A stretch of DNA of 64,000 nt from an uncultured bacterium (GTDB taxonomy: Bacteria; UBP6; UBA1177). Below, one piece after another: positions 14,434 through 64,000 of this stretch (position 1 is the stretch's first letter; each line of letters begins with the position of its first letter). The notes below the pieces were generated by a model. It was not told the origin of the DNA. It ran no database searches and worked only from the letters and a program-made list of their open reading frames with translations. The stretch covers positions 11,320 to 75,319 of the forward strand of contig CAJOFY010000020.1 of NCBI GenBank assembly GCA_905233945.1. Direction: 5' to 3'. The position numbers and the translations under genes were made by a program.

Positions 14434-14460
14434 ATAACCTCTCATTTATCCGTTTATCGT

Positions 14461-14484
14461 AGAGACGTTTCATGAAACGTCTCT
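14461..14484. terminator. Perfect 24-nt palindrome AGAGACGTTTCA|TGAAACGTCTCT between convergent gyrA and helicase genes (bidirectional terminator candidate)
   Basis: Perfect hairpin then T-run (acatttttcat) 3' of gyrA; near-identical element at window positions 3-24. Confidence 0.5.
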
Positions 14485-14491
14485 ACATTTT

Positions 14492-38738: not shown

Positions 38739-40022
38739 TTAAAAACTGTATGAATAGCCAATGTTAGCAAAAACTGTCGTATATTTAGCCTTGAACGGGT
38801 AGTTCGTAGCGCCGTTGTTTACGTCAGGATCCCCCGGACGTTCCGTGAATCCCTCGTAGTTGCCGTTGTCGAACTCGGGAGCGTTTGTTCTGACACCGAG
38901 AGCGAACACAAAGCCTTTTACAGAATAGGACGCCGTTACGCCGAACGTGAAAAGGTAGTACCATTCGGAATCTTCGACCGAACCGTAGAAACCGTCGTAA
39001 TAGTAGTCTTTCACATTGAGTTTGTAATCAGAGCCGAAACTGTATCCGCCGGAAACTTTGAATCCGAAACCTTTGTAAGCTATGCCGATACCGAGAACAA
39101 GACCTATGTCGTGGTTCTGGAGATAGCCCAGCGGTTCGTTGGAGTACGGATCCCATGCCGCATCGTATTCAGCGAATGTTTTTGCGTAGTTAAAGCCGAA
39201 TGAAATACCAAGGTTGACTTCTTTCGGAAGCTTGAAGTTCTTTGCAAGGCTTAAATCAACGCCGAGAATCGTTCTGATCTCGTAAACATCCCAGAGTTCC
39301 TTTGAAGTGAAAGGAATCGAAACGCCGATTCCGATTGAACCCATAACGCCGGCAAAAGCCTCGAAACCTTTGGAAAGGTGAATGTTGAACGGTGTGCCGT
39401 CAAATTTGGAATAGTTGAGATCTGAAGAAGATTCCAGACCGGCTTCGGTTGCGACTGCTTCCGACATTCCGTAGCGGTATAATTCCCTCAAGCCGACATC
39501 TACAGAAATGGCGAATGCCAGCGGAAGGTCGTAGTTCGCGAAAACGTTGAGAGTGTAGGCAAAACTCTTTCTTTCTTTCGCAAAACCGTGCGAGAAACCG
39601 TTGTTGATGCCGAGTGTGAAGGTCGACTGGCTTCCCTGTTCTGCCGCTTTGTCCCCGGCAGCAGTCTCCGAGTCGGCGTCCTCAGCCTGTGCTGCGAGTT
39701 CAGCTTCGAGATCCGACGGTTCTTCTTCGCCGGACGGAGCTTCTTCTTTCGCAGGTGCAGCTTCTTCAGCCGGAGCTTCTTCTTTTGCAGGTGCAGCTTC
39801 TTCAGCCGGAGCTGCCTCTGCCGGTTGCTCAGCTGCCGGTGCCTCTTCCTGCTGCGCAGCTTCCGCCGGGGCTTCCTGGGCGGGTTCCGCAGCCGCGCCT
39901 TGTTCCGGTGCGCTTTCGGAAGCCTGAGCTTCCTGTGCGAAAACCGGCAACGCGCAAATCAACAGCAGAGCAAGAAAGTAAAACTTAAAAACTTTCAATG
40001 TCTCCTCCTTTAATATGAGCAA
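38739..40022 (-). CDS. Outer-membrane beta-barrel protein with Ala/Pro/Glu-rich periodic linker
   Basis: Signal peptide ending VFAQEA; (EEAPA/AAPAKEEAPS) repeats; C-terminal alternating-hydrophobic strands ending in aromatic ...IGYSYSF. Confidence 0.55.
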   Translation of the reverse strand: MLILKEETLKVFKFYFLALLLICALPVFAQEAQASESAPEQGAAAEPAQEAPAEAAQQEEAPAAEQPAEAAPAEEAAPAKEEAPAEEAAPAKEEAPSGEEEPSDLEAELAAQAEDADSETAAGDKAAEQGSQSTFTLGINNGFSHGFAKERKSFAYTLNVFANYDLPLAFAISVDVGLRELYRYGMSEAVATEAGLESSSDLNYSKFDGTPFNIHLSKGFEAFAGVMGSIGIGVSIPFTSKELWDVYEIRTILGVDLSLAKNFKLPKEVNLGISFGFNYAKTFAEYDAAWDPYSNEPLGYLQNHDIGLVLGIGIAYKGFGFKVSGGYSFGSDYKLNVKDYYYDGFYGSVEDSEWYYLFTFGVTASYSVKGFVFALGVRTNAPEFDNGNYEGFTERPGDPDVNNGATNYPFKAKYTTVFANIGYSYSF

Positions 40023-48483: not shown

Positions 48484-48969
48484 ATGGCAGGCATTGGAAA
48501 AGACTGGGCTGTTAGAGGTAAAACTGCAGTCGGGGTCGAAAACAGAATCTATTTTTTGGGTGAAATTTTTTGGACTGAGCGTGAGCCGTGGAAAACGACA
48601 TGTTACGGTAGAAATCCGAACAAGCCTCTCAGGGCGGCCATGGTGGCAGTCAAAAGTTCGAATTTCGGTAGAGTTACGATGATTCCAGGATCTTCGCAGT
48701 TTTCCGAGGGAGAGTGGAAATTCACACCTGAGGAGATATTGAACAACACTTCGCAGAAAGGGATTGTAGGAACCTACGACCTGGATTATATCAGAGGAAT
48801 AGACAGGTGGTTTATCGAAGGCGATTACAACTATACCAACAAAAGCGAAAACTGGAAATCTGTTGTGAAGGACAAAAATCCGGGTTTTATCGGTACCATC
48901 AGCACGAAAGATAAACAAAGACTTGCTGATATGGTTGTGAAATATATGAAAAAGGGAGAGACAAAATGA
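48484..48969 (+). CDS. Uncharacterised protein A (first gene of the cas-linked operon)
   Basis: 161 aa; GGAGGTG RBS; no recognisable domain; stop overlaps next start (ATGA). Confidence 0.5.
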   Translation: MAGIGKDWAVRGKTAVGVENRIYFLGEIFWTEREPWKTTCYGRNPNKPLRAAMVAVKSSNFGRVTMIPGSSQFSEGEWKFTPEEILNNTSQKGIVGTYDLDYIRGIDRWFIEGDYNYTNKSENWKSVVKDKNPGFIGTISTKDKQRLADMVVKYMKKGETK

Positions 48970-50063
48970 ATATGTGGGATTTTATTTTAAAGCTCCGGAA
49001 TAAGGAATGTCCTGACGATATGAATGAAATGCTGAACTTTTGGACGGAAGCACTCTGCAAGGACAAGAACATCCGCGGATGGTTCCGCAATGCAGTTCAA
49101 TTAAAAGAGGATTATGTCAGGGCAGCTGTAATCGATGTTATGATATCGGCAGGGAAAAAAGAGGACGAGAATGAAAAAAACAAGGACCGTTTTAGATCGT
49201 TCATAGAACAACATATTGATACAGAAGATGAGGCGGCGCGGGAAGAGAAAATAAAAAGCGATTTTTATAAAGCGGTCTACAACAAGGTTTGGGGGATGGT
49301 ATTTGTAAGAAAAAAGGGTGATCCGAGTGAAGAATCAGAAGAATCAGAAAAACAATGTGAATATAAAGAGCCGGCCTTGAATGCAGTCTCTATAGATTAC
49401 ACTCCTGACGAGAATGAAAAAAATATGGAACAGAAACACAAAGAACTTCAAGAGATGGGTTTTGAGGATAAATTCTCCTGCGATCAGATTATGGAGCTTG
49501 TTGACACGGAAATCTTTGATAAAGTTGTGGATTTTATTGAGAAAAAAGACGCATGGGGGCATTATTCCAAGTTTAAGGATAAAAAATTCCCCATTTATTT
49601 TCACAATCCCAAGTTTGTGGACATCAAAACATGCAATGACATTGACAAGCTGTCGTGGACGAAAAATGTCATGAAAAATCTTTGTCTGGATGACGAAGGA
49701 AAATATGCCAAGGATTTCATTCTTTTTATGCCGTGGGAAAAATATCCTGTAAAAAGCGGAGGGAAATATACATCGGAAGAATATATAGAGTATATGAAAT
49801 CCCAATATATAAAATCCCGTATAGAAGAAAAATTTGAAGAGCTGAATCTGAACGATTCAACGATAAGCGATCATCTAAGAGGGGAACAAGGTGTGGAAAA
49901 AGAGTTCCACCGCCTTCTTGACGAGAAAAAGCTGACAAGCAAAGATATTCATGCTTATTGCTATAAAGAGTTTGAAGATATAATCAGGGAAAATTTTAAG
50001 GAAAGGATGCCTGATATAATTGATTTGGAAGATTTGGAAGAAGATTCGGAATTTTCCGATTAG
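48966..50063 (+). CDS. Uncharacterised protein B (cas-linked), acidic C-terminal tail
   Basis: 365 aa; Lys/Glu-rich, ends EDLEEDSEFSD; translationally coupled to gene A. Confidence 0.5.
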   Translation: MNMWDFILKLRNKECPDDMNEMLNFWTEALCKDKNIRGWFRNAVQLKEDYVRAAVIDVMISAGKKEDENEKNKDRFRSFIEQHIDTEDEAAREEKIKSDFYKAVYNKVWGMVFVRKKGDPSEESEESEKQCEYKEPALNAVSIDYTPDENEKNMEQKHKELQEMGFEDKFSCDQIMELVDTEIFDKVVDFIEKKDAWGHYSKFKDKKFPIYFHNPKFVDIKTCNDIDKLSWTKNVMKNLCLDDEGKYAKDFILFMPWEKYPVKSGGKYTSEEYIEYMKSQYIKSRIEEKFEELNLNDSTISDHLRGEQGVEKEFHRLLDEKKLTSKDIHAYCYKEFEDIIRENFKERMPDIIDLEDLEEDSEFSD

Positions 50064-50116: not shown

Positions 50117-51289
50117 ATGAACAAATTCGCAAACAAAGAAAGAATCAAAAAAATTGCTGAAACTTATGCAAGAGAAATGTATCTGTGGGGCGATCCTTTT
50201 GAGGCGCCCAGTGTTCCGCCGGAAGATGTTATCAGGAAATTCATGAAGAACCCGGAAGAGCTGGAACCTGATCTTGTCCGCCAGATAGAGACTGATATAA
50301 ACTGCGGAGCCGCTGTTAAAAAACTTGAAATTTGTGATGCTGATCCGGCACTCGAAGAAAATATTCAGATCTCCGGAGAGGAAATACGCAAGGCGCTTGA
50401 ATCGATGAAACATCCTGAAACTAAAATGGATTTTCCTTGCAAGGGCGGTGTTTTCTATACAAAAAGCAAACTCAAGGTGTTTGATGATGCAAAAGGAAAA
50501 AACTATAACATTTATACTTTCCTTCCTCAGGCTGTTCTGCTTCTTAGTGACGAAAAAAGAAAATCGTGCGGAACGAGACTCTTCAGGTGCGCAGTTGTAA
50601 CACCCGATTTCGCGGGTGGAGCCGTTGACGGTCAGGATATGGACCTTGGAAACGGCTGGATTCTCCACAAATGGCTGTGTTTTCCTGTAAGTTTCGAGCA
50701 GCTTGACTGTGAAAGAAAAATGGCTGATGTAGAAAACATTGATAAAATCGCCGAAGAGGTCAACAACTATTTCTTTTCTGAACACGAAATGACGTGCTAC
50801 GGCAGGAAAGAACAGAGACTCTCGGCGATGTCGGATTATGTTCCGGCTATGGCTGATGCCGATGTGGCAAGAGCTGAATGGCAGGCGGAACACTCCGTAT
50901 CTTTCGACACTATACAGGCTTATACAAAAGAATCTTTCAGGAAAGCTGCTGATACCGACGAGGATGTCAGCCGACTTGTTGTCAGAAGAGGTGAAAACGC
51001 CGTTGCGAAATCTTTTGAAGCGGAACTTGATGTAATAATTGATATCAATGCCGACAACTGTGATAGAATTGTAAAAGAGAAGGCATTTCCGACATGGACT
51101 ATTGATAAAGATGCAAATATTCCGGATGGAACTGTTTTCCTGCTGCGGGATGTCAGAAACGGAAACACGATCGGTTCAGGAGAAATAAGTCGCGGCGTGG
51201 CATGGCTCGAGCGTCTTGTTCCGGAGGCTGTTACGATTTCCGTAACTGACGCATCACAAGTAGTTCTGGAGGTTTATCTTCCATGTTAG
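50117..51289 (+). CDS. Uncharacterised protein C (cas-linked)
   Basis: 390 aa; no recognisable motif; overlaps gene D start by 7 nt. Confidence 0.5.
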   Translation: MNKFANKERIKKIAETYAREMYLWGDPFEAPSVPPEDVIRKFMKNPEELEPDLVRQIETDINCGAAVKKLEICDADPALEENIQISGEEIRKALESMKHPETKMDFPCKGGVFYTKSKLKVFDDAKGKNYNIYTFLPQAVLLLSDEKRKSCGTRLFRCAVVTPDFAGGAVDGQDMDLGNGWILHKWLCFPVSFEQLDCERKMADVENIDKIAEEVNNYFFSEHEMTCYGRKEQRLSAMSDYVPAMADADVARAEWQAEHSVSFDTIQAYTKESFRKAADTDEDVSRLVVRRGENAVAKSFEAELDVIIDINADNCDRIVKEKAFPTWTIDKDANIPDGTVFLLRDVRNGNTIGSGEISRGVAWLERLVPEAVTISVTDASQVVLEVYLPC

Positions 51290-52641
51290 TAAAAATTTTT
51301 GATTCCGCTCATACTGGAATGAGCCGAAGTCAGTTTCTTCGTTTTTTTTTCAAAGATTTCCCTTATGAAGCAAAAGACTTTGAATCGACAAATTTCGAAG
51401 AATCACCCGAAAATCCTGAATTGCGCGACTTGTTTACAGATCTGGGTTCGCTTTCGCTTCTGATGATCAAAAACAAAGAAGAAAACGATGAAATCCGGAA
51501 ATTGAAGGCGTTTTTCAAAGATAAAATCCCTTTTCAGCCGTGTAATAAAACCAAATTTGAAGATCTAGACAAGCGGAGATTCTCCGCAGTGTTTTTCCCG
51601 ATAGAGACAGGAGCTGATCCTGAATGGGGAATGTGCGTCAGAAGTGATGCAGGCGACACTTTCTTCTTTGATTCAAAAGACTGCGAATGGAAATCCGGAT
51701 GGAGCGGTGACGGAGATTCATATAAACTCGCTGCGGCACTTGCGAAAGAACTTCTTGAATCGGATTTGCCGGAACGGGATGAACATATTTTCAAAGCTGC
51801 GCAGGACTGGATTGTCACAGGCAGCGTAGATGGAAAAGGGAAAGTCGGCAAAGTAGCTCTCGGCGGCAAACTAAGGCTCAGAACAAAAAAGAGTTTTATG
51901 ATTCCATTGGAAAATATTGCCACCCTTTCGGATGAAGAGAGAAAAAGGGATTTGTTTTCAGTAGATGAGATCTCGACGGCGATGAATCTGATTACAAGAA
52001 ACGGTGTGAAACCGCTTGTCGAGCGCGAATTTCCTCTGGAAGTTGATGAACTTCACATTCTTGTCGGTGCGGCTCTTGCTCCGCAGGTAGCTTCCGTCGT
52101 GCTTCTGAATGCAAAAAAAATTATACTCTGGCACTCGGAAAATTCCAAAGTAAATGCAGATGAAATGTGTGAAATCGCCCGAAAATTAAAGGGAATTGTC
52201 CCTGAAAAGCGCAAAATGTCGTCTTCATCCCTGCTTGATGCCGAAAAGGAACTCAAAAAGTATTTCGCTTACGGCAAGATTTCGCCTCAGGCACGGATTT
52301 TTTTCAATTTCACGAGCGGAAACAGACTCATGGCGATGGCAGTCCAGTCAGTGGCAAGACTTTATCACAATGTAGAGATGATTTACCGCGATATAGATGA
52401 AACCGACAAAAAAAAGGAGGCTGAAGAGAGCCGTCTTATGACATTCAATCTTCTGCAGTACAGCGAATTCCCCCCTCTTTACGGTAAAATATACGGAACT
52501 GTAAGGAGCGGACTTGATGTCAATTTTCTGCGGAACGGCAAAAGAGAAACTGCAAAGAACGTCAATTTTCAGCAGAACGAAGAAACTGAATATAAGGACG
52601 GAGAGGATTTTTTAAATAAACTGATAAAAAAGGAGAAGTGA
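51283..52641 (+). CDS. Uncharacterised protein D (cas-linked), possible Rossmann-like sensor domain in C-terminal half
   Basis: 452 aa; stop abuts the cas10 start (52641/52642); C-terminal region (ELHILVGAALAPQVASVVLLNAKKIILWHS) has a beta-alpha Rossmann-like pattern, but assignment to the CRISPR-associated Rossmann fold (CARF) is unproven. Confidence 0.45.
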   Translation: MLVKIFDSAHTGMSRSQFLRFFFKDFPYEAKDFESTNFEESPENPELRDLFTDLGSLSLLMIKNKEENDEIRKLKAFFKDKIPFQPCNKTKFEDLDKRRFSAVFFPIETGADPEWGMCVRSDAGDTFFFDSKDCEWKSGWSGDGDSYKLAAALAKELLESDLPERDEHIFKAAQDWIVTGSVDGKGKVGKVALGGKLRLRTKKSFMIPLENIATLSDEERKRDLFSVDEISTAMNLITRNGVKPLVEREFPLEVDELHILVGAALAPQVASVVLLNAKKIILWHSENSKVNADEMCEIARKLKGIVPEKRKMSSSSLLDAEKELKKYFAYGKISPQARIFFNFTSGNRLMAMAVQSVARLYHNVEMIYRDIDETDKKKEAEESRLMTFNLLQYSEFPPLYGKIYGTVRSGLDVNFLRNGKRETAKNVNFQQNEETEYKDGEDFLNKLIKKEK

Positions 52642-54279
52642 ATGGCAACTTACGTTTACGGCGGAAAATTCCAGGGAATCCAAAGCTACATTTTTTCAAC
52701 GAACAGACTGAGGGAGAACATCGGTGCAAGCGAACTGCTGAACGAAATATGTACCGAAGATTTTCTTAAAGAAAAACTTACTTCTTTCGAAATCAAAGGT
52801 GATTACGAAATTGTGCAGAAAGCGGCAAGTACAATTAAAATCGTTTTCCGAGAACAAGACGATGCTAAAAAAATGAAACAGGAATTTCCCAAGGTCGCAC
52901 GTGACTTGGTTCCTGGAATAGAGTTTTCACAGACTTATATTGAGCAGAAAAGTGATGATCTGAAAAACATAGACAAAGAAGTCAGAGATAGTTTAGAAGA
53001 GGAACTGAATAAGGAAAAAAACCGTCCTGCAACACTTTATTATCCTAATCTGATGATCGTAAAAAGGGATAACCGCACAGGACTGCCGGTTCGCGCTGAA
53101 AAAAAATACAGAATAAATTATATCGATGATGATGGAAAACAAAAAGAGAAACCTGCAGATGAATCGACATACAAAAAAGATTCCAAAGCAAATGATGCTC
53201 ACCCGAAACTTGTGGAAAAACTTATCGGAGAAGGACGGGGCCAACTGATGCCTGTTGAAATTGAACGAATTTCAAATTCAAACAGTTTTATTGCTGTTGT
53301 TCACGCTGACGGAAACGGACTCGGTCAGATAATAAGCAATTTGGGAAAGAATGTTAATTCAAAATTGTTTTCCGAGACACTTGACGACTGTCTCGTCGGG
53401 GCAGCCGGAGATGCCTTCAGAGAAATAATAGAGAATAAATACAATGGTGACAAAAAAAATTATTATCCGTTCCGTCCGATGGTGCTTGGCGGAGACGACT
53501 TTAATTTTATCTGCAAGGCGGATGATGCCGTTGAGTTCACAAAGAAATTTATAACGCTGGTCGAGAAATATACCGAAACAAAGTTTGAACCTCTTTTTGG
53601 AGATACAAACGAACAAAATAAAAAAGTGTCAAAAATGACGGTTTGTGCCGGAATAGCTTTTGTTAAAGAGAATTATCCGCTGCATTTTGCCTACGAACTG
53701 GCGGAATCGCTGTGTGATCTTGCAAAGGACAAAGCAAAGGATCTGCGAAAGCAGGAAGTGGAAAGATTAAAAAAAGAAAATGCTGAAGCAAATAAAGATG
53801 CGATAAAGAAGGTTCTGATTCCTTCCTGTATCGCTTTCAGAAAGGAATTGGGCAGTTTTGCTGAGGATTTCGATAATATAAAAGAAAAGGACAAGAAATT
53901 TATTTTCGGACCTTATGCGGTTTCCGACAGCGGATACAAACTTCCTCAGATTGACAGTCTGGTTAAAGTTGCGGAAGTTTTGAAAGACAACAATCCTTTC
54001 AAATCGTTCCTCAGAAACTGGATGAGCGATGAACTGGTCAATCCGCATTCGGCTCAGCTTTTAAAAAAACGTTTCATGCAGGTCGCAAATGAGAAAAACG
54101 GTGGAGCATACGCAAAATTCTGCAATGCGTTGAATGAACTTGTTCCACAGGCAAACGCAGAAGACCTTACGCTTGAAAAGGACGGTGTTTCACCTGTTCT
54201 CGATATTCTGACTCTTATTTCCATTGCGGAAAAAACAGACCCGGACAGTAAGAAAGGAGGAGAAAATGATAACAATTAA
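52642..54279 (+). CDS. cas10: Cas10 (type III large subunit) lacking HD domain, cyclase GGDD motif intact
   Basis: N-terminus starts directly with palm-1 signature (YVYGGKFQGIQSYIFS..LRENIGAS, compare Cas10 GDxSGIQxFIF..LRGRS); palm-2 DxD (AVVHADGNGLG) and RPMVLGGDDFNF; no HD motif, no treble-clef CxxC pairs. Confidence 0.7.
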   Translation: MATYVYGGKFQGIQSYIFSTNRLRENIGASELLNEICTEDFLKEKLTSFEIKGDYEIVQKAASTIKIVFREQDDAKKMKQEFPKVARDLVPGIEFSQTYIEQKSDDLKNIDKEVRDSLEEELNKEKNRPATLYYPNLMIVKRDNRTGLPVRAEKKYRINYIDDDGKQKEKPADESTYKKDSKANDAHPKLVEKLIGEGRGQLMPVEIERISNSNSFIAVVHADGNGLGQIISNLGKNVNSKLFSETLDDCLVGAAGDAFREIIENKYNGDKKNYYPFRPMVLGGDDFNFICKADDAVEFTKKFITLVEKYTETKFEPLFGDTNEQNKKVSKMTVCAGIAFVKENYPLHFAYELAESLCDLAKDKAKDLRKQEVERLKKENAEANKDAIKKVLIPSCIAFRKELGSFAEDFDNIKEKDKKFIFGPYAVSDSGYKLPQIDSLVKVAEVLKDNNPFKSFLRNWMSDELVNPHSAQLLKKRFMQVANEKNGGAYAKFCNALNELVPQANAEDLTLEKDGVSPVLDILTLISIAEKTDPDSKKGGENDNN

Positions 54280-54799
54280 CTATAAAATCGAATTTTTTAC
54301 CGACTGGAACTGTTCCAGCGGTCTCACAGGAAACGCCGATATCGATATCGCGGCTCTGCGTGACAATGACGGATTTCCGTATGTTCCCGGCAAAACGGTA
54401 AAAGGACTTTTGAGAGATGCGGCAAGAAATCTGGGTGAAACCAGTGAAGAAAAAATTTTCGGTTCTCCAAACGAGAAAGTTGACGAAACCGAAATAGAAA
54501 AAGCATACTTCTCAAATGCCGAACTTAATGAAAATGTCCGGAAAGCATTGAAATACGACAATGAGAAAAAAGCGTGCCTTTTCCGCGAAATTGCATCTAC
54601 CGCCATTGGTTCTGACGGGGTGGCAAAAGACAATTCGCTCAGAAAAGTCGAAGTTGCTATTCCTCTTACACTTTTCGGCACAATCGAATGTGAGGAAATG
54701 CACAAAGATACGATTTCGAGATGCATGAAGTTCATAAAAAGGCTCGGTATGGAGAGAAACCGCGGTCTTGGAAGATGTGAAATGTCGGAGGTGAAATAA
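54266..54799 (+). CDS. cas7: Minimal Cas7 (Csm3-like RAMP)
   Basis: AGGAGG RBS; RAMP motifs SSGLTGNADIDI...DGFPYVPGKTVKGLLR and C-terminal Gly-rich loop GMERNRGLGRCE. Confidence 0.65.
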   Translation: MITINYKIEFFTDWNCSSGLTGNADIDIAALRDNDGFPYVPGKTVKGLLRDAARNLGETSEEKIFGSPNEKVDETEIEKAYFSNAELNENVRKALKYDNEKKACLFREIASTAIGSDGVAKDNSLRKVEVAIPLTLFGTIECEEMHKDTISRCMKFIKRLGMERNRGLGRCEMSEVK

Positions 54800-56331
54800 T
54801 GAGATACTGTTACAAAGTCACGCTTCTTGCCGATGTCGTAATGAGTTCGCTCAGCTCGACCGAAGTATCGGAATCGCTTGATTATCTCAGCGGTTCTGCA
54901 TTTATGGGGATCGCGGCAAATTATCTTTTCACAGAAAACAGAAAAAACGGAAAAAATTATGATGTTTTTGACGCTGTTTTTTCAGGGAAAATCCGTTTTC
55001 TGGATGCCCATCCGCTGATTGACGGTAAAAGAAGTTTCAAGATCCCGCTCTGCCTCCACAAACCGAAAGTAAAGGGCGCTGCGAAAAAATACCGTTTTGA
55101 AGGAAAACCGCTGGAGGAAGGTGAAAACAAGATCCAGATGAAGCAGGTACGCAAGGGTTTCTTCATCGCAGACGGCGGAACCTGGACAAAAGTCGAACCG
55201 GAACACCAGTACACGATGAAATCTTCATACGACAGCGAAACAAGACGTGCCCAGGACAACGCTCTTTTCGGCTACGACGCTCTTGTAAAAGGAAGCGAGT
55301 GGGTTTTTGTCATGGAATTCGACGATGAAAAGAAGGATATCGCCGAAGAACTTAATAAATTTTTCATTTCAAAAAACCACAGGATCGGAAAATCGAAGAC
55401 CAGCCAGTACGGAAATGTGGAAATCAAAAGAGACGATTCTCTTCTTTCTGACTGCGGGACCTATGAGGCGACAGAAAACAAATACAAAGTCTATGCCGAT
55501 TCGCGCCTCTGCTTCTTTGATGAAAACGGTCAGCCGACATTCCAGCCGACACCTGAGCAGCTCGGTTTCAAAGACGGAGAAATCCTCTGGAACGAAAGTT
55601 TTGTTAGAAAATATGTCTTTACTCCGAGAAACGCGACAAGAAACGCTTACGACGGCGATATCGCCTGCATAGACAAAGGAAGCGTGTTTACTGTCAAGTC
55701 CGAGACAGGTCACAACGGAAGAAAAGTTGTCGGTGAATATCAGTCGATAGGTCTCGGGCAGATAATCGTAAATCCGGAATTTCTGAAAGAACATCCGGAG
55801 CATTTGAAAGATGTTGATGAAAACGATACTAAACCGGCAGTTCAGTGCAACGGTCCTCTTGTTGCATGGCTTGAAAGTAAGCAGAAAGAGAAAGATGTGG
55901 AGCAGAAAATCGCTGAGCAGGTAAATGAGGCGCGTAAGCTTATTACATGGCTTGAAAGTAAGCAGAAAGAGAAAGATGTGGAGCAGAAAATCGCTGAAAA
56001 GGTGACTGCTGCTTTTGCAAGTATGCCGGTCGGCATTTCTCCGAGCCAGTGGGGAGTTTTGAGAGCAAAAGCAAGAATGGCACTTGTCGAACATACAGAT
56101 TGGGCAGACTTCGAATATGCCATTTTCTTGGCTGGAGATGCATATCTTAAAAAAGAGCGCCTGAATTCAAAATGGGGCACGGATAAAGTTAAAAAACTCC
56201 ACAGTGTTTGTAAGAATGTTTGCGGTAATTCAACTTGGAACGATATTCAGAAACTCCGCTTTTTTGAGCTTCTGTGTGCGGCAGCAGCAAAAGAAGCAGC
56301 CAAAAAAACAAAAGATAATGGAGGCAAATAA
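54799..56331 (+). CDS. cas5: Cas5-group RAMP (Csm4/Csx10-like) with C-terminal extension containing a 27-aa tandem repeat
   Basis: N-terminal YLSGSAFMGIAANYL (RAMP G-loop variant), Csm4-like HRIGKSKTSQYGNVEI; coupled start (ATAATGA) with upstream gene. Confidence 0.55.
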   Translation: MRYCYKVTLLADVVMSSLSSTEVSESLDYLSGSAFMGIAANYLFTENRKNGKNYDVFDAVFSGKIRFLDAHPLIDGKRSFKIPLCLHKPKVKGAAKKYRFEGKPLEEGENKIQMKQVRKGFFIADGGTWTKVEPEHQYTMKSSYDSETRRAQDNALFGYDALVKGSEWVFVMEFDDEKKDIAEELNKFFISKNHRIGKSKTSQYGNVEIKRDDSLLSDCGTYEATENKYKVYADSRLCFFDENGQPTFQPTPEQLGFKDGEILWNESFVRKYVFTPRNATRNAYDGDIACIDKGSVFTVKSETGHNGRKVVGEYQSIGLGQIIVNPEFLKEHPEHLKDVDENDTKPAVQCNGPLVAWLESKQKEKDVEQKIAEQVNEARKLITWLESKQKEKDVEQKIAEKVTAAFASMPVGISPSQWGVLRAKARMALVEHTDWADFEYAIFLAGDAYLKKERLNSKWGTDKVKKLHSVCKNVCGNSTWNDIQKLRFFELLCAAAAKEAAKKTKDNGGK

Positions 56332-57800
56332 TGAAGAAATATCTGGCAAGAATCATATTCGAGGCTGAAACACCGCTCCATGTCGGCAGCGGCAGTTCAG
56401 ACCTTACCCTTGATGCGCCCATAAACTGCGATGCGAACGGACTTCCTCAGATAAACGGATCAAGCCTCGCAGGAATTCTGAGAAGTTCTTTCAGTGACGA
56501 CGAAAAAATCAGAGAAAAAATTTTCGGTTTTCAGAAAAAAGCAGCAGAAGAAGAAGGAAAAGGTGAAGGTTCAAGGCTTGTTGTCAGCAATGCACACCTG
56601 ATTTATGAAGGCGGCAGAGTTGTAGAAGGCCTGATAACCAACGATGAAATAACAAAAAGCAAATATCTCAAAGCGATGCAGGCTTACGCTCTTCCTCTGC
56701 GCGATCACTGCAGGATAAATGAAAAAGGTGCTGCAAAAGATCAGGGAAAATTCGACAACTGCGTCCTTCCGAAAGGTGTCAGATTTGTATGCGAGCTTGA
56801 ACTGACTGAAAATGACAAAGATCTTTCCGCTGACTGGGAAAATCTGCTTCAAGTTGTTTCAAGCGATACTTTCAGGGTCGGCGGCAAAGTTAGAAGCGGT
56901 CTCGGAAGACTGAAAGTTCATGAATGTTTCGAAAAACCTTTTGATTTTCAAAATCCTGATGCTGTCAAAGAATATCTTGAACACTCTTCCTCATTCAATA
57001 AAAAAACTGCATGGAAAACTGAACTCAAATCAGGCGGAAAGTCAGATAAATATTTGTGCTACACTCTCGAGATCCAGCCGGAGGATTTCTTCACTTTCGG
57101 CAGCGGATACGGAGATGAAGAAGTCGATATGACTCCGAAAAAAGAGATCGTTGTTAAGTGGGACGGTGACACTCCTGACATCAGTGAAGCAAAAATCCTT
57201 ATTCCTGCTTCTTCGATCAAGGGGGCGATTTCACACAGGACCGCTTTCTACTACAACAAACTGACAGAAAATTATGCTGAAAAATTTAAAGGTGTTAAAG
57301 AAGAAGATAAGCCGGTCGGTCCAAAAAACGAAGCTGTAAGAGCTCTTTTCGGTTATGACAAGCAAAAAGAGGCTGAATTTAAAAAGCCGGAAGTGCCTGC
57401 CGATAAGCAGGAGAAGGCTGAATCTGAAAAGCAGGAAACTCCCGCAGGCAAAGTGTTTTTTGACGACATGATAATTGAAGAAAATGCCGATGAGAAAGTT
57501 TTCAACCATGTTTCGATAGACAGATTCACAGGCGGTGCGATGAGCGGAGCTCTTTTTGACGAGAAAGTCTGCGGAACCAGCGTCGAAGTTGAACCTGATA
57601 AGTTCAAACCGCTGGAGATCGAACCTCTGAAGATTTATGTCAAAAAATCGGCTTTCGAAGGAAACGTCAATGTCAGAGAAGCTTTCGAAAATGCTCTTGA
57701 CGACATCTGCACCGGAATGCTTCCTCTCGGCGGCAGCACGATGCGCGGACACGGCTGTTTTACAGGAACTTTGAAAAAACCGGAGGATAACAATGAGTGA
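56331..57800 (+). CDS. cas7: Fused double-Cas7 RAMP (two Csm3/Csm5-like domains in one polypeptide)
   Basis: Domain 1: ETPLHVGSGSS...GLPQINGSSLAGILRS with G-loop VRSGLGRLKV; domain 2: ILIPASSIKGAISHRTAF with terminal G-loop LPLGGSTMRGHGCF. Confidence 0.6.
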   Translation: MKKYLARIIFEAETPLHVGSGSSDLTLDAPINCDANGLPQINGSSLAGILRSSFSDDEKIREKIFGFQKKAAEEEGKGEGSRLVVSNAHLIYEGGRVVEGLITNDEITKSKYLKAMQAYALPLRDHCRINEKGAAKDQGKFDNCVLPKGVRFVCELELTENDKDLSADWENLLQVVSSDTFRVGGKVRSGLGRLKVHECFEKPFDFQNPDAVKEYLEHSSSFNKKTAWKTELKSGGKSDKYLCYTLEIQPEDFFTFGSGYGDEEVDMTPKKEIVVKWDGDTPDISEAKILIPASSIKGAISHRTAFYYNKLTENYAEKFKGVKEEDKPVGPKNEAVRALFGYDKQKEAEFKKPEVPADKQEKAESEKQETPAGKVFFDDMIIEENADEKVFNHVSIDRFTGGAMSGALFDEKVCGTSVEVEPDKFKPLEIEPLKIYVKKSAFEGNVNVREAFENALDDICTGMLPLGGSTMRGHGCFTGTLKKPEDNNE

Positions 57801-58191
57801 AAATATTATAAAAAGAGAAATGGACCGCCAGCAGCTTAAAGAATTATGGAATGAACTGAAAGCTGAAGGGATGGACTGCGGCTACTACTGGCTTGACAAT
57901 GATGATCACCCGGAACTTTTTGAAAACGGAAATATGCCCGATTTTCCCGGCAACAGCCGTAACTTCATCGTCGAAAGCTGCTGGTACAAAAAGAACGAAA
58001 AGAGTGTCGAGATCCGTTTTGCAGGCGGAAAATACATCGTCACGACAGTTGATCTGACGAAAGAAAAACTTGAAATACCAAAAGAATACTTTGTCTCGAC
58101 GCAGAAAGAAGCGACAATCCTTTTCTCGGATATCATCAACGAAGAAGACGGTTCGATAAAAAAGATTGTTTTTGTTGGTTTCGGAAATTAG
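57793..58191 (+). CDS. Small uncharacterised cas-embedded protein (132 aa)
   Basis: Overlaps upstream stop; mixed alpha/beta, not obviously Cas11. Confidence 0.45.
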   Translation: MSENIIKREMDRQQLKELWNELKAEGMDCGYYWLDNDDHPELFENGNMPDFPGNSRNFIVESCWYKKNEKSVEIRFAGGKYIVTTVDLTKEKLEIPKEYFVSTQKEATILFSDIINEEDGSIKKIVFVGFGN

Positions 58192-58200
58192 GAGGCAGAA

Positions 58201-60537
58201 ATGGCATACGATAATGATCAGAACAGGAAAGGTTCAAATAGTTTCGGGAAAAATCCCACTATAAAATCACCGTATAATTTTGTACCTCTTTCAGAGACAG
58301 TCGTTTGCCCTGATTGGGCGGATGAAGTCAGCCATGACATTCCGTTTGAAGACGGCATCAGCGGAAAAATCGACCTCACAGTCACGCTTCAGAGCGATAC
58401 TTACATCAGAAACGGCGGGAATTGGAGTGAAGCAGATAAAAAAGACGACAAATCTAAATGCCAGAAATTCTTCACTGCAGCAGTAAACGGCGAAAAGAAA
58501 TACATTATTCCCGGAACATCGTTCAAAGGAATGATCCGCAATGTCCTTGAAATCGCAAGTTTCGGAAAGATGCAGAAAGTCAATGACGACAAGTATTCGA
58601 TAAGGGATCTGCATAACACAAGATATACCGGTGAACTGACTGAAAAAAGAGGCGGGATTATTTATCCTAAAACAAAGGCAGGATGGCTGTGTCTCGATGA
58701 AGGTTCCTATGAAGATGAAGGCGGAAGAAAGTGGCAGATAATTCCTTGTGATTATGCGAGGATAGAGCAGGAAGAACTTAGTCCTGATTTTGGCAGAAGA
58801 GGGACTAAAACACTCAAGGAAACTACTGAATTTAAGTATGAAAAATTCGGAGAAGACAAGCTCGAAGTAACTTTTCAACTCGATGAAAAAACAGAACATG
58901 ATGAGCATTCATGCGGAACAATATACTATAAAAAAGTAAAAAAAGACACTCTCAACAAGCCCGAGTCCGAGATGAAAGGAATTCTTGTTTTTACCGGCCA
59001 GCCAAGCAATCGAATTACTCAGGCAGAACGTAACAGCAATGAAAAACTAAAAAAACAACATCCTAAACACATGGAATTTGTTTTCTACGAATATGAAACT
59101 TCGAAAAAACCTCGATCTATTACAGCATCACAAAAAGAAAATTTCATATTTATAAATTCTGACAGCAATAAAAAACCTCTTCCGGAATGGGAATACTGGA
59201 CAAGAAATGAAGAACCGAAGGATAAAAATCTGAAAGAGAAAAAAGGTGACGGAGAATTGAAAGAGGGAAGAAAAGTCCCCGTTTTTTATCTCGAAGACAG
59301 CGAGGGAAATATAAAATCTTTCGGTCTTGCAATGATGTACAGACTGCCTTACGACAACTCTGTCGTGCAGACGATAGAACATACTTCAAGAGATCATTTT
59401 TCTTTTGATGCTTATAAAAAATACGAAAACAAGAACAAAGATAAAGACGATAAAAATAAAGACAAAGATGAATGGAAACCAGACTTGTCAGATCTCATAT
59501 TCGGTTACTCGAATAAGGAAAAATCCCTTAAAGGCAGAGTCCAGTTTTCGCATTTTATCAGTAAAGATAAGGTCGGAGAAATTGAGACTGTCGGTGAGAC
59601 GAAAACAACCGTTCTCGGAGGACCTAAAGCAAGTTATTATCCTAATTATCTGGAACAGCCGGATCTTAAAGCAGGATATAAACTGTTCTGGGATAAAGAT
59701 GCTAAAATCAGAGGTTGGAAGCGCTATCCTGCGCAGGGAATTGAAGCTTCATACCCGCCACCTCCTGAGATAAACGGAAAAGTGAATGAAGATGTTGCGA
59801 CAAAACTTATTCCGCTGAAAGCAGGTGCAGAATTTAAAGGTTCTGTCCGTTTCTTCAATCTTAAACATGAAGAACTCGGTGCTCTGCTCTGGGCTATTAC
59901 CTGGGATAAAGACAAGTACTGCCAGCACAATATCGGTATGGGAAAACCGCTCGGTCTCGGCAGAATCTCGATAGATATTACAGCACAAGTGATTACGGAA
60001 ACTTCAGAAACAATGGATGATTTCCTTGCAGAATTCAAGAAGTATATGAACGGTAAAGTTCCTAATTGGGAGAAGTCCGAACAGATAACAGAACTCAAGC
60101 GAATGGCGGACATCAGGTTCTGGAGTGACGAAGTAACGACATCTTATCCTATTCTTGATATGAACTGCAAACCTACCATCAACGAGTTTAATGATGCGAA
60201 AACAGCAATGGAAAAACTCGAGCGTTATTCTGAAATTGCAGACCGGCACGATGTCAAGGTAGAAACTCTGGAAGACAAGCTGAAAAAAGATGAAAAAAAG
60301 GCAAAAATTGCAGCAGCTTCCGAAGGTTTGGCTCCTGAACTCCAGAAAGTATTTGAATCACTGCGCAATTTAACGAAAGGCAAATTAAACAATAAGCTTA
60401 AAAACAATGAACTCACTGATAAAGGTAACGAACTCACCGAGAAAGAAGTCGCAGTGCTTAAAATTCAACCTCAGGATGCCTGGGAAAAATGGCAGTGGGA
60501 AGTTATAGATTCTCGTAGAAAAAATTGGGACAAATAA
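58201..60537 (+). CDS. cas7: Large Cas7-family RAMP (Csm5/Cmr6-like) with insertions and alpha-helical C-terminal tail (possible fused small subunit)
   Basis: GGAGG RBS; SPYNFVPL N-terminal motif, YIIPGTSFKGMIRNVLE, distal G-loop GMGKPLGLGRISI; final 180 aa Lys/Glu-rich helical. Confidence 0.6.
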   Translation: MAYDNDQNRKGSNSFGKNPTIKSPYNFVPLSETVVCPDWADEVSHDIPFEDGISGKIDLTVTLQSDTYIRNGGNWSEADKKDDKSKCQKFFTAAVNGEKKYIIPGTSFKGMIRNVLEIASFGKMQKVNDDKYSIRDLHNTRYTGELTEKRGGIIYPKTKAGWLCLDEGSYEDEGGRKWQIIPCDYARIEQEELSPDFGRRGTKTLKETTEFKYEKFGEDKLEVTFQLDEKTEHDEHSCGTIYYKKVKKDTLNKPESEMKGILVFTGQPSNRITQAERNSNEKLKKQHPKHMEFVFYEYETSKKPRSITASQKENFIFINSDSNKKPLPEWEYWTRNEEPKDKNLKEKKGDGELKEGRKVPVFYLEDSEGNIKSFGLAMMYRLPYDNSVVQTIEHTSRDHFSFDAYKKYENKNKDKDDKNKDKDEWKPDLSDLIFGYSNKEKSLKGRVQFSHFISKDKVGEIETVGETKTTVLGGPKASYYPNYLEQPDLKAGYKLFWDKDAKIRGWKRYPAQGIEASYPPPPEINGKVNEDVATKLIPLKAGAEFKGSVRFFNLKHEELGALLWAITWDKDKYCQHNIGMGKPLGLGRISIDITAQVITETSETMDDFLAEFKKYMNGKVPNWEKSEQITELKRMADIRFWSDEVTTSYPILDMNCKPTINEFNDAKTAMEKLERYSEIADRHDVKVETLEDKLKKDEKKAKIAAASEGLAPELQKVFESLRNLTKGKLNNKLKNNELTDKGNELTEKEVAVLKIQPQDAWEKWQWEVIDSRRKNWDK

Positions 60538-60539
60538 CT

Positions 60540-62312
60540 ATGACTCCGGCTTTCTATACTCTCAGAACTGCTTATTCCGCGCAGAAAAGAGGCGTGATCC
60601 TTCACGCTGTCCTGCAGGCGATAATGAAAGAGAGCTATATGGATGCTTTCCCCGGCATGGTCTGGAAAAATCTGGCTGTGCCGAACATTTTCTACCATGT
60701 CGAGGGAAGGCGTTTCAGCGATGTTCTGGAGGAAAAGGAGGTCTTTACTGTCTGCTACTTTTTCTGCGGAATTGACGAAGAAACAGTTGCAAAGTTCACC
60801 GATGCTCTGAAAAAGCGGATGGATGTGCCTGAAAACCAGCATTACTACAGGCTGGAAAAGGTGGCTCAGCCGGTTTTGAAAACGCTTGACGATCTTCGCA
60901 GAGAGTATGCCTTCATTCCTGAGAAGGGTGAGATCACGCTTGATCTATTGATGCCGCTTCCTTTCAACTCGGGCAAGGATACGGAAAAAACAGAGATCTC
61001 GAAAGAGCTCTTCAAAAAGCTGCTTTCGGGAAGGATGAAACGCCTTTTCGGCGATGATCTGCAGGGCGGGATCGATACCGATGCTTTCGAGATCACGACA
61101 GATTTAAGGCGCAAAACTCTGTGCACGCACCAAAAGAACGGCGTCTACGGGCAGAGGATACGCGGATGTATCGGCAAAATCACGCTAAAAGGCGATTTTT
61201 CATCTTTCCGTGATCTGCTGATCCTTGCGTGCGAACTGCACCTGGGGCCGGAACTTACGACTTCTCAGGGGTATTTCGTGCCGGAAAGAGGCGGAGAGCC
61301 TTCATCTGCGGATGATGATGAAACAGTGGCCGAACCTTACAAAAAGCCGCTCTACATCACGGCGATGAACTCTTTTCTCGGGGTGAGCGGAGGAACGATC
61401 GAGATTTACAGCGACCGAGAGCTGAAAAATTCATATCCGATGAACAGAATAGGCGAGGTCATCGTTCTGGAAAAGGCGATTTTCAGCACCGATTTTCTGA
61501 CGAAGTGCGCGGAACGCGGTATTCCGGTTTCGATTTCTCTCGGAAAATCGGCTGAATACGGCACGTTCACCAAGCCGGAAAAGAATCGCTACGAAGTTCT
61601 TAAAAGCCATATTCTGAAGTTTTCATCTCTTTCGGAAGAGGAAATCGTCAAAATTTCGAGAGATATAGCCGAAACGAAGACAAGAGCGTTCATAAGCATT
61701 TTCAAAAGAAGGTGGGAAAAAGGAACCGCAAGGATCCTGAAAAAGCTGGAAGCTGCGGCTGATTTGTTCGCAAAGGCTGAAACGATCGATGAAATACGCG
61801 GCTACGAAGGAATATCGAGCAGGCTGATATACGAGAAGATCCAGAATCTGATCCTGAATGAGGATTTCAGGTTCGAGAGGCGCGGCAGATACGAAAAAGA
61901 CTTTATGAACACGACTCTGAATTTCGTATATTCAAAGCTTTATCAAAGGGTCGTGCTTACGCTTAATGCGCTCGGACTGAATCCGTATCTGGGTTTCCTG
62001 CACAGTTCAAACGACCGCTACGAATCGCTTGCCTGTGACATTGAAGAGCTTTTCCGCGCACCGGTTTTCAACGCAGTAATCAATCTGATCAACCTGCAGC
62101 AGCTGAAAGCGTCCGATTTTGTTGAGACTGAAAAAGGAATCATTATCAAGCAAGGGGCGATCCGCACAATACTTGAGGTTTTTGAAAAAGAATTTCAAAA
62201 AATTAACCCGAAAAGCGGAAAAACGCTTGAATATGAGCTTTATAACCAGTGTGTGCTCATCAAAAACTGGGCACTCGGGAAATGTGAACTGAGCTGGTTC
62301 AGGTGGGAATGA
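60540..62312 (+). CDS. cas1: Cas6-Cas1 fusion protein
   Basis: N-terminal 260 aa with Cas6-like G-rich loop (ELHLGPELTTSQGYF); C-terminal Cas1 core (LYITAMNSFLGVSGGTIEIY ... RYESLACDIEELFRAPV). Confidence 0.65.
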   Translation: MTPAFYTLRTAYSAQKRGVILHAVLQAIMKESYMDAFPGMVWKNLAVPNIFYHVEGRRFSDVLEEKEVFTVCYFFCGIDEETVAKFTDALKKRMDVPENQHYYRLEKVAQPVLKTLDDLRREYAFIPEKGEITLDLLMPLPFNSGKDTEKTEISKELFKKLLSGRMKRLFGDDLQGGIDTDAFEITTDLRRKTLCTHQKNGVYGQRIRGCIGKITLKGDFSSFRDLLILACELHLGPELTTSQGYFVPERGGEPSSADDDETVAEPYKKPLYITAMNSFLGVSGGTIEIYSDRELKNSYPMNRIGEVIVLEKAIFSTDFLTKCAERGIPVSISLGKSAEYGTFTKPEKNRYEVLKSHILKFSSLSEEEIVKISRDIAETKTRAFISIFKRRWEKGTARILKKLEAAADLFAKAETIDEIRGYEGISSRLIYEKIQNLILNEDFRFERRGRYEKDFMNTTLNFVYSKLYQRVVLTLNALGLNPYLGFLHSSNDRYESLACDIEELFRAPVFNAVINLINLQQLKASDFVETEKGIIIKQGAIRTILEVFEKEFQKINPKSGKTLEYELYNQCVLIKNWALGKCELSWFRWE

Positions 62313-62596
62313 TGCCGAATACGGGAAATTATGTTTTCGCTTACGACATTTCGCTCACGAAAGAGCGGAACAAAGTTGATAAAGTTTTGAAGGAATACGG
62401 GTTTCGTATCCAGAAAAGTGTTTTTGAATGTGTTCTGACTGAAAATGACCGCGAAAAACTGCTGAACAGGCTGAATGAACTTGGGTTGAACAGCGGTTTC
62501 GTTAAGGTTTACAGGCAGGATTCCTATTTTAAGGCAAAAACTGTGGGACCTGCACCGGAAAAGCAGGATACCGGTTTTGCCTATTTCGCGGCTTAG
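62309..62596 (+). CDS. cas2: Cas2
   Basis: YVFAYDIS...RNKVDKVLKEYGFRIQKSVFEC Cas2 signature; ATGATG start overlapping cas1 stop. Confidence 0.8.
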   Translation: MMPNTGNYVFAYDISLTKERNKVDKVLKEYGFRIQKSVFECVLTENDREKLLNRLNELGLNSGFVKVYRQDSYFKAKTVGPAPEKQDTGFAYFAA

Positions 62597-62648
62597 CGCG
62601 CGAATGTTCGTTGACAATTGAGAAACAGATAAACTCTGCTATGACCTC

Positions 62649-62711
62649 ACCCCTTTTTCCCCTCGCAGACCTCACCCTAATCCCTCTCCATTGTGGCGAG
62701 GGAAAAGGGGT
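62649..62711 (+). promoter_or_regulatory. Long imperfect inverted repeat (ACCCCTTTTTCCCCTCGC ... GCGAGGGAAAAGGGGT) between cas2 and the CRISPR leader
   Basis: 16-18-nt arms separated by about 29 nt of C-rich sequence, 53 nt 3' of cas2 stop. Confidence 0.4.
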
Positions 62712-62958
62712 TCATAGGTAGCTAATTTTTGTGTTGCAGGAGCCTTAGATCAGGAAACGTTTTTATAACGAGGTTTGAACTAATATCTCGATTTTATTTG
62801 GTAATTTCTTAAATGGCGTTTTCTTTGAACTTCTTGATCTCAGTAAAAAAACAGCGGTCGCACGAAGTCACATTTTTGCGGCTGTTGAAAAATGAAAATA
62901 TGGGTAGCCAATTTTTTAATTGAAAACCTCAGTATTTTCTGCTATGTGAGCATGCTAC

Positions 62959-63750
62959 TGTAACGAGTAGCAGAGTAGCTACTCTGGTTGAAACTGTTAG
63001 TGCACTGAATTGTTTTGCCATTTTGTGTAACGAGTAGCAGAGTAGCTACTCTGGTTGAAACAGGTGTCTTTCTGTATCCCCAATCTCACGCTCAAGTAAC
63101 GAGTAGCAGAGTAGCTACTCTGGTTGAAACTGTGTTCATTCTAAGTCTCCAAAATAAAAGTTACTGTAACGAGTAGCAGAGTAGCTACTCTGGTTGAAAC
63201 ATTCACCCATGCCTTACTGTCTCGAATTACTTCAGTAACGAGTAGCAGAGTAGCTACTCTGGTTGAAACTATATCTTCTTTATCTTTTAAAAGATAAAAA
63301 AGGTAACGAGTAGCAGAGTAGCTACTCTGGTTGAAACTCTTTCTCTTCTTCTTTGTCTTCTTTTTCATCAGGTAACGAGTAGCAGAGTAGCTACTCTGGT
63401 TGAAACCTTCTACAAGGCAGAATACCAGAAAATGTCCAAGTAACGAGTAGCAGAGTAGCTACTCTGGTTGAAACCCGTTAAGAAAACGTTTCATAATTTA
63501 CACCTTCGTAACGAGTAGCAGAGTAGCTACTCTGGTTGAAACTAATACTACCTTTTTTCTTTTCTTCTGTTACTTGTAACGAGTAGCAGAGTAGCTACTC
63601 TGGTTGAAACCAGAGTTTCCGCAACATTCTGATGACCCGCTGTAGTAACGAGTAGCAGAGTAGCTACTCTGGTTGAAACATCGTACCAGGCTGATACCTC
63701 TCCGATAATGCCCCTGTAACGAGTAGCAGAGTAGCTACTCTGGTTGAAAC
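62959..63750 (+). CRISPR. CRISPR array 1: 12 copies of 35-nt repeat GTAACGAGTAGCAGAGTAGCTACTCTGGTTGAAAC, spacers 32-36 nt
   Basis: Identical repeats with 67-71 nt period; repeat has internal 7-bp hairpin (GAGTAGC..GCTACTC) and 3' GTTGAAAC handle; AT-rich leader 62716-62958 on cas side. Confidence 0.95.
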
Positions 63751-63789
63751 TAGTTCGTGTTGTTCTTGTTGTTGTTATTGTTGTTGACA

Positions 63790-64000
63790 GTTACATGAAG
63801 GCGGAACCTAGGCTCCGGTTGAAACTATGCTTCTTTATCATTCTTAATTTCAGTTATTTGTTACATGAAGGCGGAACCTAGGCTCCGGTTGAAACAGCCA
63901 GTCAGGTTTGATATCATCAGGCAGACTGCGTTACATGAAGGCGGAACCTAGGCTCCGGTTGAAACAAACAGTTGCCGTCGTAAGTCATATCACTGACAAG
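63790..64000 (+). CRISPR. CRISPR array 2 (truncated by window end): at least 3 copies of distinct 36-nt repeat GTTACATGAAGGCGGAACCTAGGCTCCGGTTGAAAC
   Basis: Three identical repeats with 70-nt period starting 39 nt after the last repeat of array 1; shares 5' GTWAC and 3' CYGGTTGAAAC with array-1 repeat. Confidence 0.85.

Follow-up and report, generated by a model that had tools for sequence, protein, structure and literature searches.

The 64,000-nucleotide (nt) stretch analysed here, referred to as the window (uncultured bacterium of the UBA1177 lineage, contig CAJOFY010000020.1, positions 11,320 to 75,319), ends within a CRISPR array that follows a type III-D cas operon (Table 1). The array opens with 12 copies of a 35-nt repeat, R1 (GTAACGAGTAGCAGAGTAGCTACTCTGGTTGAAAC), all without mismatches, which start at 62960, 63027, 63096, 63166, 63235, 63303, 63372, 63440, 63508, 63576, 63645, and 63716. 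The spacers of this block measure 32–36 nt, and the last R1 copy ends at 63750. After a gap of 39 nt, the array continues with a 36-nt repeat, R2 (GTTACATGAAGGCGGAACCTAGGCTCCGGTTGAAAC), of which three full copies with 0 mismatches start at 63790, 63860, and 63930. The R2 spacers in the window are 34 nt long, and a fourth R2 copy begins with the G at base 64000. A CRISPR array is recognized by at least three near-identical direct repeats of 23–47 nt with unique spacers of similar length, by adjoining cas genes, and by an upstream leader; the region shows all of these, with spacers of 32–39 nt that are all unique.

Both repeats end in GGTTGAAAC. Chance alone would give 0.8 occurrences of this sequence in the window, but 17 are present, 15 of them at repeat ends. 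The common 3′ end extends beyond this 9-mer to 13 nt with one difference (CTCYGGTTGAAAC), and the 5′ ends are alike as well (GTAAC and GTTAC). Overall, R1 and R2 are identical at 25 of 36 positions. The change from one to the other is abrupt rather than gradual, and the R2 copies are uniform. An earlier interpretation of the letters alone (hereafter the sequence-only reading) had proposed two repeat families with a shared 3′ handle and no leader between them, and had named a tail of progressively diverging R1 copies as the contrary case. The two families and the handle are real, R2 is a uniform second family, and no leader intervenes, nor was a promoter-like or terminator-like site found between the R1 and R2 blocks. 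The same reading spoke of two abutting arrays, which was correct for the repeat families but not for the arrays: both blocks have the same orientation without a leader between them, and the region is better described as one composite array (array A), belonging to a type III-D system, than as two touching arrays.

Table 1. Features of the type III-D locus and its composite CRISPR array (window positions)
Feature	Position	Strand	Basis and remarks
CARF-domain protein, 452 amino acids (aa)	51283..52641	+	PADLOC CARF/Csx1 models E 1.5e-9; weak Pfam CARF_Card1 match
Cas10d, 545 aa; GGDD at residue 283, no HD domain	52642..54279	+	PADLOC Cas10d E 4.8e-98; Pfam Cas10 palm2; motif read from translation
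Cas7 (type III-D)	54224..54799	+	PADLOC Cas7_IIId E 6e-61
Cas5/Csx10 (type III-D)	54799..56331	+	PADLOC Cas5_IIId E 2.6e-109
Double Cas7 (type III-D)	56331..57800	+	PADLOC Cas7_IIId E 1.2e-142; two RAMP stretches in Pfam
Csx19/Cas11-like small subunit	57793..58191	+	PADLOC Csx19 E 1e-12; NCBIfam TIGR04423 above cut-off
Large Cas7 with insertion (TIGR03986 family)	58201..60537	+	NCBIfam TIGR03986 308.8 bits, above cut-off; PADLOC Cas7_IIId E 1.8e-146
Cas6-Cas1 fusion, 590 aa, no reverse transcriptase	60540..62312	+	Cas6, residues 1–262; Cas1, ~271–570, Pfam Cas1 E 1e-53
Cas2	62309..62596	+	Pfam CRISPR_Cas2 on identical product in public contigs
Leader of composite array	62597..62959	+	Motif ATGTTCGTTGACAATTGAGAAACAGA at 62604–62629; hairpin insert resembling a repetitive extragenic palindromic (REP) element; ~99% conserved in L001–L003
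R1 block, leader-proximal: 12 identical 35-nt repeats, 11 spacers	62960..63750	+	R1 after the same leader in L001, L002, L008
Junction spacer, 39 nt, (GTT)n-rich	63751..63789	+	Microrepeat (Tandem Repeats Finder, TRF); no promoter/terminator motif
Start of R2 block: 3 of 6 full 36-nt repeats	63790..64000	+	Continues past the window to truncated seventh copy and trailer, window-equivalent ~64240

The array could be followed past the window in contig L006 (ENA ERZ27234821, 67,981 bp; related contigs are given as L numbers throughout), which was found by an exact-protein look-up with Cas6-Cas1 and is 100% identical to the window over the shared 13,461 nt. The strain is present in rumen samples, among them ERZ27234821 and ERZ28573570. 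In L006, the R2 block comprises six full copies (five identical, one with a single-nucleotide polymorphism, SNP) and a seventh copy cut at nt 30, which joins a trailer of approximately 140 nt. The sequence-only reading had suggested extending the sequence past position 64000 to find the end, the leader, and the cas genes of a second array. The end was found; a leader or cas genes were not detected after the R2 block in the L006 extension. The proposal behind it, a reverse-oriented second array served by a leader and cas genes of its own past the window's end, is thus refuted, provided that L006 agrees with the true genome after position 64000, and has virtually no chance of being correct. The minus-strand RNA also folds into a hairpin, but a truncated terminal repeat and a trailer lie where the leader should be, and in L004, L012, L013, and L015 the R2 leader is located on the GTTACATG side.

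Downstream of the R2 block, L006 carries, in the same orientation, a decayed array (array B), a CARF/Card1-like gene, and a third array (array C). Array B (L006 13830–14203, window-equivalent ~64369–64742) is a leaderless hybrid of one 5′-truncated and two mutated R1-like copies with disrupted stems, followed by a 58-nt gap and by a second copy (94%) of the truncated R2 with its trailer. Array C consists of a short leader, two R1 copies, three identical full R2 copies, a truncated R2, and a trailer. The order R1 then R2 is therefore seen three times within approximately 4 kb of the L006 locus (arrays A, B, and C).

Related loci were sought by scanning genome and metagenome contigs with the R2 core as query. 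R1 forms independent arrays in L001, L002, and L008, in the last of these alone after a stand-alone Cas6 (90% identical), and R2 does so in L004, L005, L012, L013, and L015. Among these, L015 contains a syntenic III-D operon (Cas6-Cas1 74% and Cas2 70.5% identical to the window), a homologous long leader, and a pure R2 array. R2-only mini-arrays with two full copies and one truncated copy behind a short leader with the same motif are present in L004, L005, and L013, an "empty" array in L012, where one truncated R2 follows a full modular leader, and an R2-variant array in L014. Because of the sister locus L015, with its own Cas6-Cas1 and Cas2, and the R2-only mini-arrays in related rumen genomes, R2 is regarded as a real, independent family, the repeat of a sister III-D system. 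Neither R1 nor R2 matched an Rfam CRISPR-DR family. These occurrences also bear on the alternative that the junction is an assembly chimera joined through the shared GGTTGAAAC, or that R2 is merely a degenerate tail of R1, which we consider highly improbable. CRISPR repeats often break or misjoin assemblies, and several related contigs terminate inside arrays. However, the junction is the same, base for base, in three assemblies from different analyses (the window and, from ENA, L006 and L007) and is therefore not a chimera; an equivalent R1/R2 junction is present in array C; and R2, whose copies are uniform, shares only 25 of 36 positions with R1 and occurs independently in other genomes.

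Mixing of repeats is not restricted to R1 and R2. In L009 and L010, which have a Cas6 with 73% identity to the window's, an array with R2, a third repeat (R3), and chimeric R2/R3 repeats follows a single Cas6. Together with the R1-then-R2 hybrids, this indicates that mixed-repeat arrays are recurrent in these rumen bacteria. From R2 to R3, the stem is retained by a compensatory change of a G–C to an A–U pair. The perfect-but-one palindrome is kept as well, changing from CGGAACCT|AGGCTCCG to CAGAACCC|GGGCTCTG (L009 10910–12330). Compensatory changes affect positions 14/27 as well as the central positions 20/21, which are adjacent. The central pair cannot pair in a hairpin, and its change hints at selection on symmetry at the DNA level, for example, for recognition by the integrase.

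Two further observations concern the surroundings of these arrays. Some lie beside tmRNA (transfer–messenger RNA)-like sequences, namely, a tmRNA-like gene in L009 (12580–12920) and a tRNA/tmRNA-like 3′ end in L012 (4690–4940). In addition, a sequence of the form TCCGGAAAAA..C..AAAA..C..CGCTTTA(T/A)AG recurs upstream of genes, with GGAGG and ATG about 30 nt later (L006 16046–16100, 16765–16810, and 17575–17620; L004 1440–1490; L009 12445–12480 and 12995–13030), and probably represents a promoter type of this uncultured rumen lineage.

The leader of array A fills the 363 nt that separate cas2 from the first R1 copy. Its motif ATGTTCGTTGACAATTGAGAAACAGA is common to the leaders of L004, L008, L009, L012, L013, and L015. 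Four observations agree that the array is transcribed on the + strand and that acquisition takes place at the cas2 side, among them the following: the leader next to cas2 is approximately 99% conserved in L001–L003, which share the same Cas2 but carry different leader-proximal spacers; the truncated repeat is situated at the far end; and the R1 block is uniform, while the R2 block holds a variant copy. The + strand of the 73 spacers from these loci was also pyrimidine-rich (mean 0.57, p = 3e-8), which is weak evidence for CRISPR RNAs (crRNAs) antisense to purine-rich mRNAs. An all-against-all comparison of the 73 spacers revealed no sharing between loci except between L001 and L002, and no self-targets in the window; the ages of the blocks can thus not be ordered by shared spacers.

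The leader motif itself was considered as a genome-wide REP element. This was rejected because CAATTGAGAAACAGA occurs only once in the 64-kb window, and the motif is therefore specific to the CRISPR locus. In this clade, the leader motif ACAATTGAGAAACAGA on one side and its inverted counterpart TCTGTTTCTCAATT, at the trailer end, on the other enclose the arrays (window 62604–62629; L006 ~14335 and 16735, inverted; L009 ~12412; L013 ~11730). The motif might act as a promoter or operator or as a recombination site, or it might mark the ends of an array cassette that is mobile. The REP-like hairpin (CCTCACCCCTTTT...CCCTCTCCATTGTGGCGAGGG) is found within the long leader; inverted copies are located in the trailers and behind a gene nearby (window 62640–62715; L006 14204–14330, 16660–16720, and 17480–17560). 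The long leader resembles the short leader with an insert of about 320 nt that is flanked on both sides by CTGCTATG.

The 39-nt junction spacer between the two blocks is GTT-rich, with a period-12 microrepeat at 63758–63786. Of the 73 inter-repeat gaps measured, only this one and the 58-nt gap in the decayed array B exceed 36 nt. The simplest explanation for its length is slippage by one or two GTT units from an ordinary spacer of 33–36 nt. Alternatively, two formerly separate arrays, each with a leader, might have been fused by a deletion that removed the leader of the second, in which case the junction would be the scar. Its low complexity and unusual length are in line with such an event, as is the modular, indel-prone nature of the leaders of this clade; moreover, the junction begins with AGTTCGT and ends with GTTGACA, resembling the leader motif ATGTTCGTTGACA. 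This resemblance, however, comprises just a 6-mer and a 7-mer within GTT-rich sequence, and genuine leaders carry the motif 10–330 nt upstream of the first repeat and never directly abutting it. Furthermore, the R1/R2 junction in array C is an ordinary 33-nt spacer, the L013 counterpart of array C displays a replaced leader end rather than a fusion (see below), and 39 nt are within reach of one or two slippage steps. A fusion by deletion is therefore unlikely. The junction had also been considered as a remnant of a leader, which was dropped because the likeness is probably due to chance.

The operon upstream of array A is a complete type III-D operon on the same strand, with Cas10d, Csx10, Csx19, and III-D Cas7 proteins (Table 1). 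At its beginning, the gene products of 48966–50063 (365 aa) and 50117–51289 (390 aa) matched no family, and the N-terminal 250 aa of the CARF protein are without a family assignment. The 390-aa protein is conserved in L008 (86%) and L015 (43%); for the 365-aa protein, only a partial match of 30% was found in L015. The CARF protein is likely to be a signal-activated accessory effector, judging from its domain matches, and all three proteins are candidates for accessory effectors of type III that are new.

The only Cas6 in the window and the 14-kb extension is the one fused to Cas1. The N-terminal part of the fusion showed a weak Pfam match to a Cas6 family (PF10040), and its homologues are stand-alone proteins of 252–262 aa that close related III-D operons. 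An AlphaFold model of this part (predicted local distance difference test, pLDDT, 69; predicted template modelling score, pTM, 0.68) gave top PDB fold matches that were all Cas6, the best being 6dd5. A PDB search with the sequence N-terminal of Cas1 returned no match, so that within the PDB, Cas6 was recognized by fold comparison only. No family match to a reverse transcriptase (RT) domain was obtained in Pfam, NCBIfam, or PADLOC, and the two domains are joined by an acidic linker of approximately 25 residues. The fused open reading frame (ORF) is retained in diverged copies (94% in L001 and 74% in L015), whereas in III-D loci without cas1 and cas2 (L008 and L009), close homologues of the Cas6 part are encoded by separate genes. 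The exact term "Cas6-Cas1" did not occur in the literature searched.

Adaptation and effector modules of CRISPR systems are modular and are exchanged between loci. In another strain (L001 1–5380, and L002), the cassette of cas6-cas1, cas2, leader, and R1 (94% nt identity) is located behind a III-B Cmr operon (Cmr4/5/6). The homology of L001 and L002 to the window (60539–63200) starts at 60539, one base ahead of the start of cas6-cas1. This points to a cassette that is mobile as a unit and to modular exchange between III-D and III-B effectors.

Two observations elsewhere in the window are recorded here. Tandem repeats of 18, 21, 27, and 36 nt at 39720–39865 lie under long ORFs on both strands (38739–40022, −; 39588–40013, +) and probably code for a repeat region of low complexity. 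Between genes, a short palindrome rich in GC (GGCGCCCCTGAGGCAGGGGAGCTGG...CTGAGGGGTC) is found repeatedly (window 3–30 and 14441–14486; L005 384–429; L006 14265–14310).

The origin of the hybrid array is best approached through array C, for which an R2-only counterpart exists. Array C and the mini-array of L013 have in common the sequence upstream, which is 88% identical over 66 nt as far as GAGAAACAGA, as well as the trailer and a downstream gene (64% aa identity; approximately 4 kb farther from the array in L006). They differ only between the leader motif (ACAATTGAGAAACAGA) and the R2 block: L013 has its own leader end followed by R2, whereas array C has an R1 leader end of the L008 type (TAACTCTGCTAAA), two R1 units, and then R2. 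This difference may be read as the footprint of a replaced leader-proximal end. A recombination or replacement of an older array, which the sequence-only reading had offered as one explanation of the junction, is favored by these comparative data, that is, array C with L013, L015, and L001/L002.

Cas1-Cas2 copies the first repeat of an array at each acquisition. We propose that recombination swapped the leader-proximal end of a resident R2 array for the leader end and the first repeat of an R1-type adaptation cassette. Once R1 held the first position, each later spacer would have come with an R1 repeat and the R2 block would have been pushed distally; copying of the first repeat would therefore account for the uniformity of R1 at the proximal end and for the position of R2 at the distal one. 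The R1 block would accordingly be the younger, actively growing part, and the R2 block (with distal spacers such as TGAAATTTAGTCACTAGGAAAGGTTTTTCACTTTC) an older legacy of the sister III-D system. All 12 R1 copies are identical, and the R2 block has one SNP copy and a truncated end, as expected for an older distal part.

For R1, a hairpin of 7 bp (−11.2 kcal/mol) is predicted, the stem of which ends 10 nt from the 3′ end; the predicted R2 hairpin has 4–5 bp (−5.8 kcal/mol), and its stem ends 8 nt from the 3′ end. Because both hairpins end 8–10 nt from the 3′ end and the last 13 nt are common, the single Cas6 could cut R1 as well as R2 and leave the same 8-nt 5′ tag, GUUGAAAC, for one III-D effector. 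In a III-D2 system, Cas6 leaves an 8-nt repeat-derived 5′ tag, which is read by Cas7 and Cas5 (PMC13294483). A common GUUGAAAC tag for both blocks is plausible from these predictions. In the Cas6 domain, the window shares 86% identity with the R2-type locus L015 and 90% with the R1-type locus L008, whereas in the Cas1 domain the identity with L015 is only 64%. The repeat family therefore tracks Cas1-Cas2 and not Cas6.

The R2 block might instead be a non-functional fossil, co-transcribed but neither processed by the R1-type Cas6 nor loaded, so that only the R1 block immunizes. The two hairpins are unlike in sequence and strength, the R2-block spacers show no strand bias, and the degenerate array B demonstrates that such blocks decay at this locus. 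On the other hand, the six full R2 copies of array A agree with one another except for a single SNP in one of them, array C shows no difference among its three full copies, and the 13-nt 3′ end is conserved. Furthermore, Cas6 domains of 86–90% identity serve R1 or R2 arrays elsewhere, and arrays with mixed repeats behind one Cas6 recur in L009 and L010. A fossil block is thus conceivable but rather doubtful.

Taken together, we consider it probable that array A is a composite III-D array with a young R1 block at the leader and a legacy R2 block at the distal end, which arose by replacement of the leader end and the transcript of which is predicted to be processed by one Cas6. Several results weigh against this interpretation. 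An R2-only relative of array A with shared distal spacers was not found, and replacement is therefore demonstrated by comparison for array C only; a search for strain variants of array A via the downstream CARF gene returned nothing but copies without differences and contexts that are unrelated. A chimeric R1/R2 repeat that would mark a crossover is absent, and the shared tracts, only the leader motif and the 9–13-nt repeat end, are short for homologous recombination. The 3′ effector genes of the window are nearer to those of the R1-type L008 than to those of the R2-type L015 (Cas7c 84% vs. 52%), which makes it ambiguous which module is the resident one. The R2 hairpin is weak (z 0.3), and the R2-block spacers of the locus lack the pyrimidine bias of the R1-block spacers, although their number is small (n = 9). 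Finally, the search of the spacers against phage databases that the sequence-only reading had recommended gave no target for any spacer searched: no protospacer emerged when 26 spacers, concatenated, were compared by blastn with 50,697 phage records, nor did a search of IMG/VR with exact 23–27-nt cores of four spacers, including the junction, reveal one.

Within an array, repeats are commonly regarded as uniform, and they are usually assumed to co-evolve with Cas1-Cas2 and Cas6. We tentatively suggest, as a possibility of wider scope, that adaptation cassettes repeatedly take over arrays of another repeat family, and that the common 13-nt end and 8-nt tag keep the legacy spacers usable, with Cas1-Cas2 specifying the repeat body and Cas6 and the effector reading the shared end only. 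If so, immune memory would outlive the replacement of the acquisition machinery. The locus provides a natural experiment in which the constraints that Cas1-Cas2 imposes on the repeat are separated from those of Cas6 and the effector; if the legacy block is still processed and loaded, the shared 13-nt end would be the minimal requirement for both. It is also a warning for annotation pipelines, which may split such loci into two arrays or orient the blocks independently, and it documents an RT-less Cas6-Cas1 fusion that is found with III-D and III-B effector modules. In the literature searched, no description was found of a natural array in which two clearly distinct repeat families stand in tandem.

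In its gene content (Cas10d, Csx10/Cas5, fused and inserted Cas7, Csx19, CARF, and Cas6), the locus resembles type III-D loci with Cas6-processed arrays, such as III-Dv of Synechocystis and III-D2 of Gammaproteobacteria (PMC13294483), and a crRNA with an 8-nt repeat-derived 5′ tag is expected by this likeness. It differs from them in that Cas6 is fused to Cas1 and in that two repeat families stand in tandem in the array. Fusion of Cas6 to Cas1 in a type III context is known from the Cas6-RT-Cas1 protein of Marinomonas mediterranea (PDB 6dd5), the best structural match; unlike that protein, the 590-aa fusion described here has no RT domain. Recombination within and between CRISPR loci has been reviewed for the Sulfolobales (PMC4390879), and rearrangement mediated by repeats and the exchange of modules between loci are comparable with the cassette found here with III-D and III-B effectors. 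In contrast to the documented cases, which are mostly spacer shuffling among arrays of the same repeat, a stable two-repeat array, with 11 of 36 positions differing, occurs here three times in one locus. One or few Cas6 proteins are reported to serve several repeat families in S. solfataricus (PMC4041471), Synechocystis (PMC5741207), and Anabaena (bioRxiv 10.1101/2020.04.14.041012). These genomes share with the locus analysed here the question of Cas6 specificity or promiscuity across repeats with a common tag; there, however, the repeats belong to separate arrays with their own leaders, whereas here both would be presented to Cas6 on one transcript.

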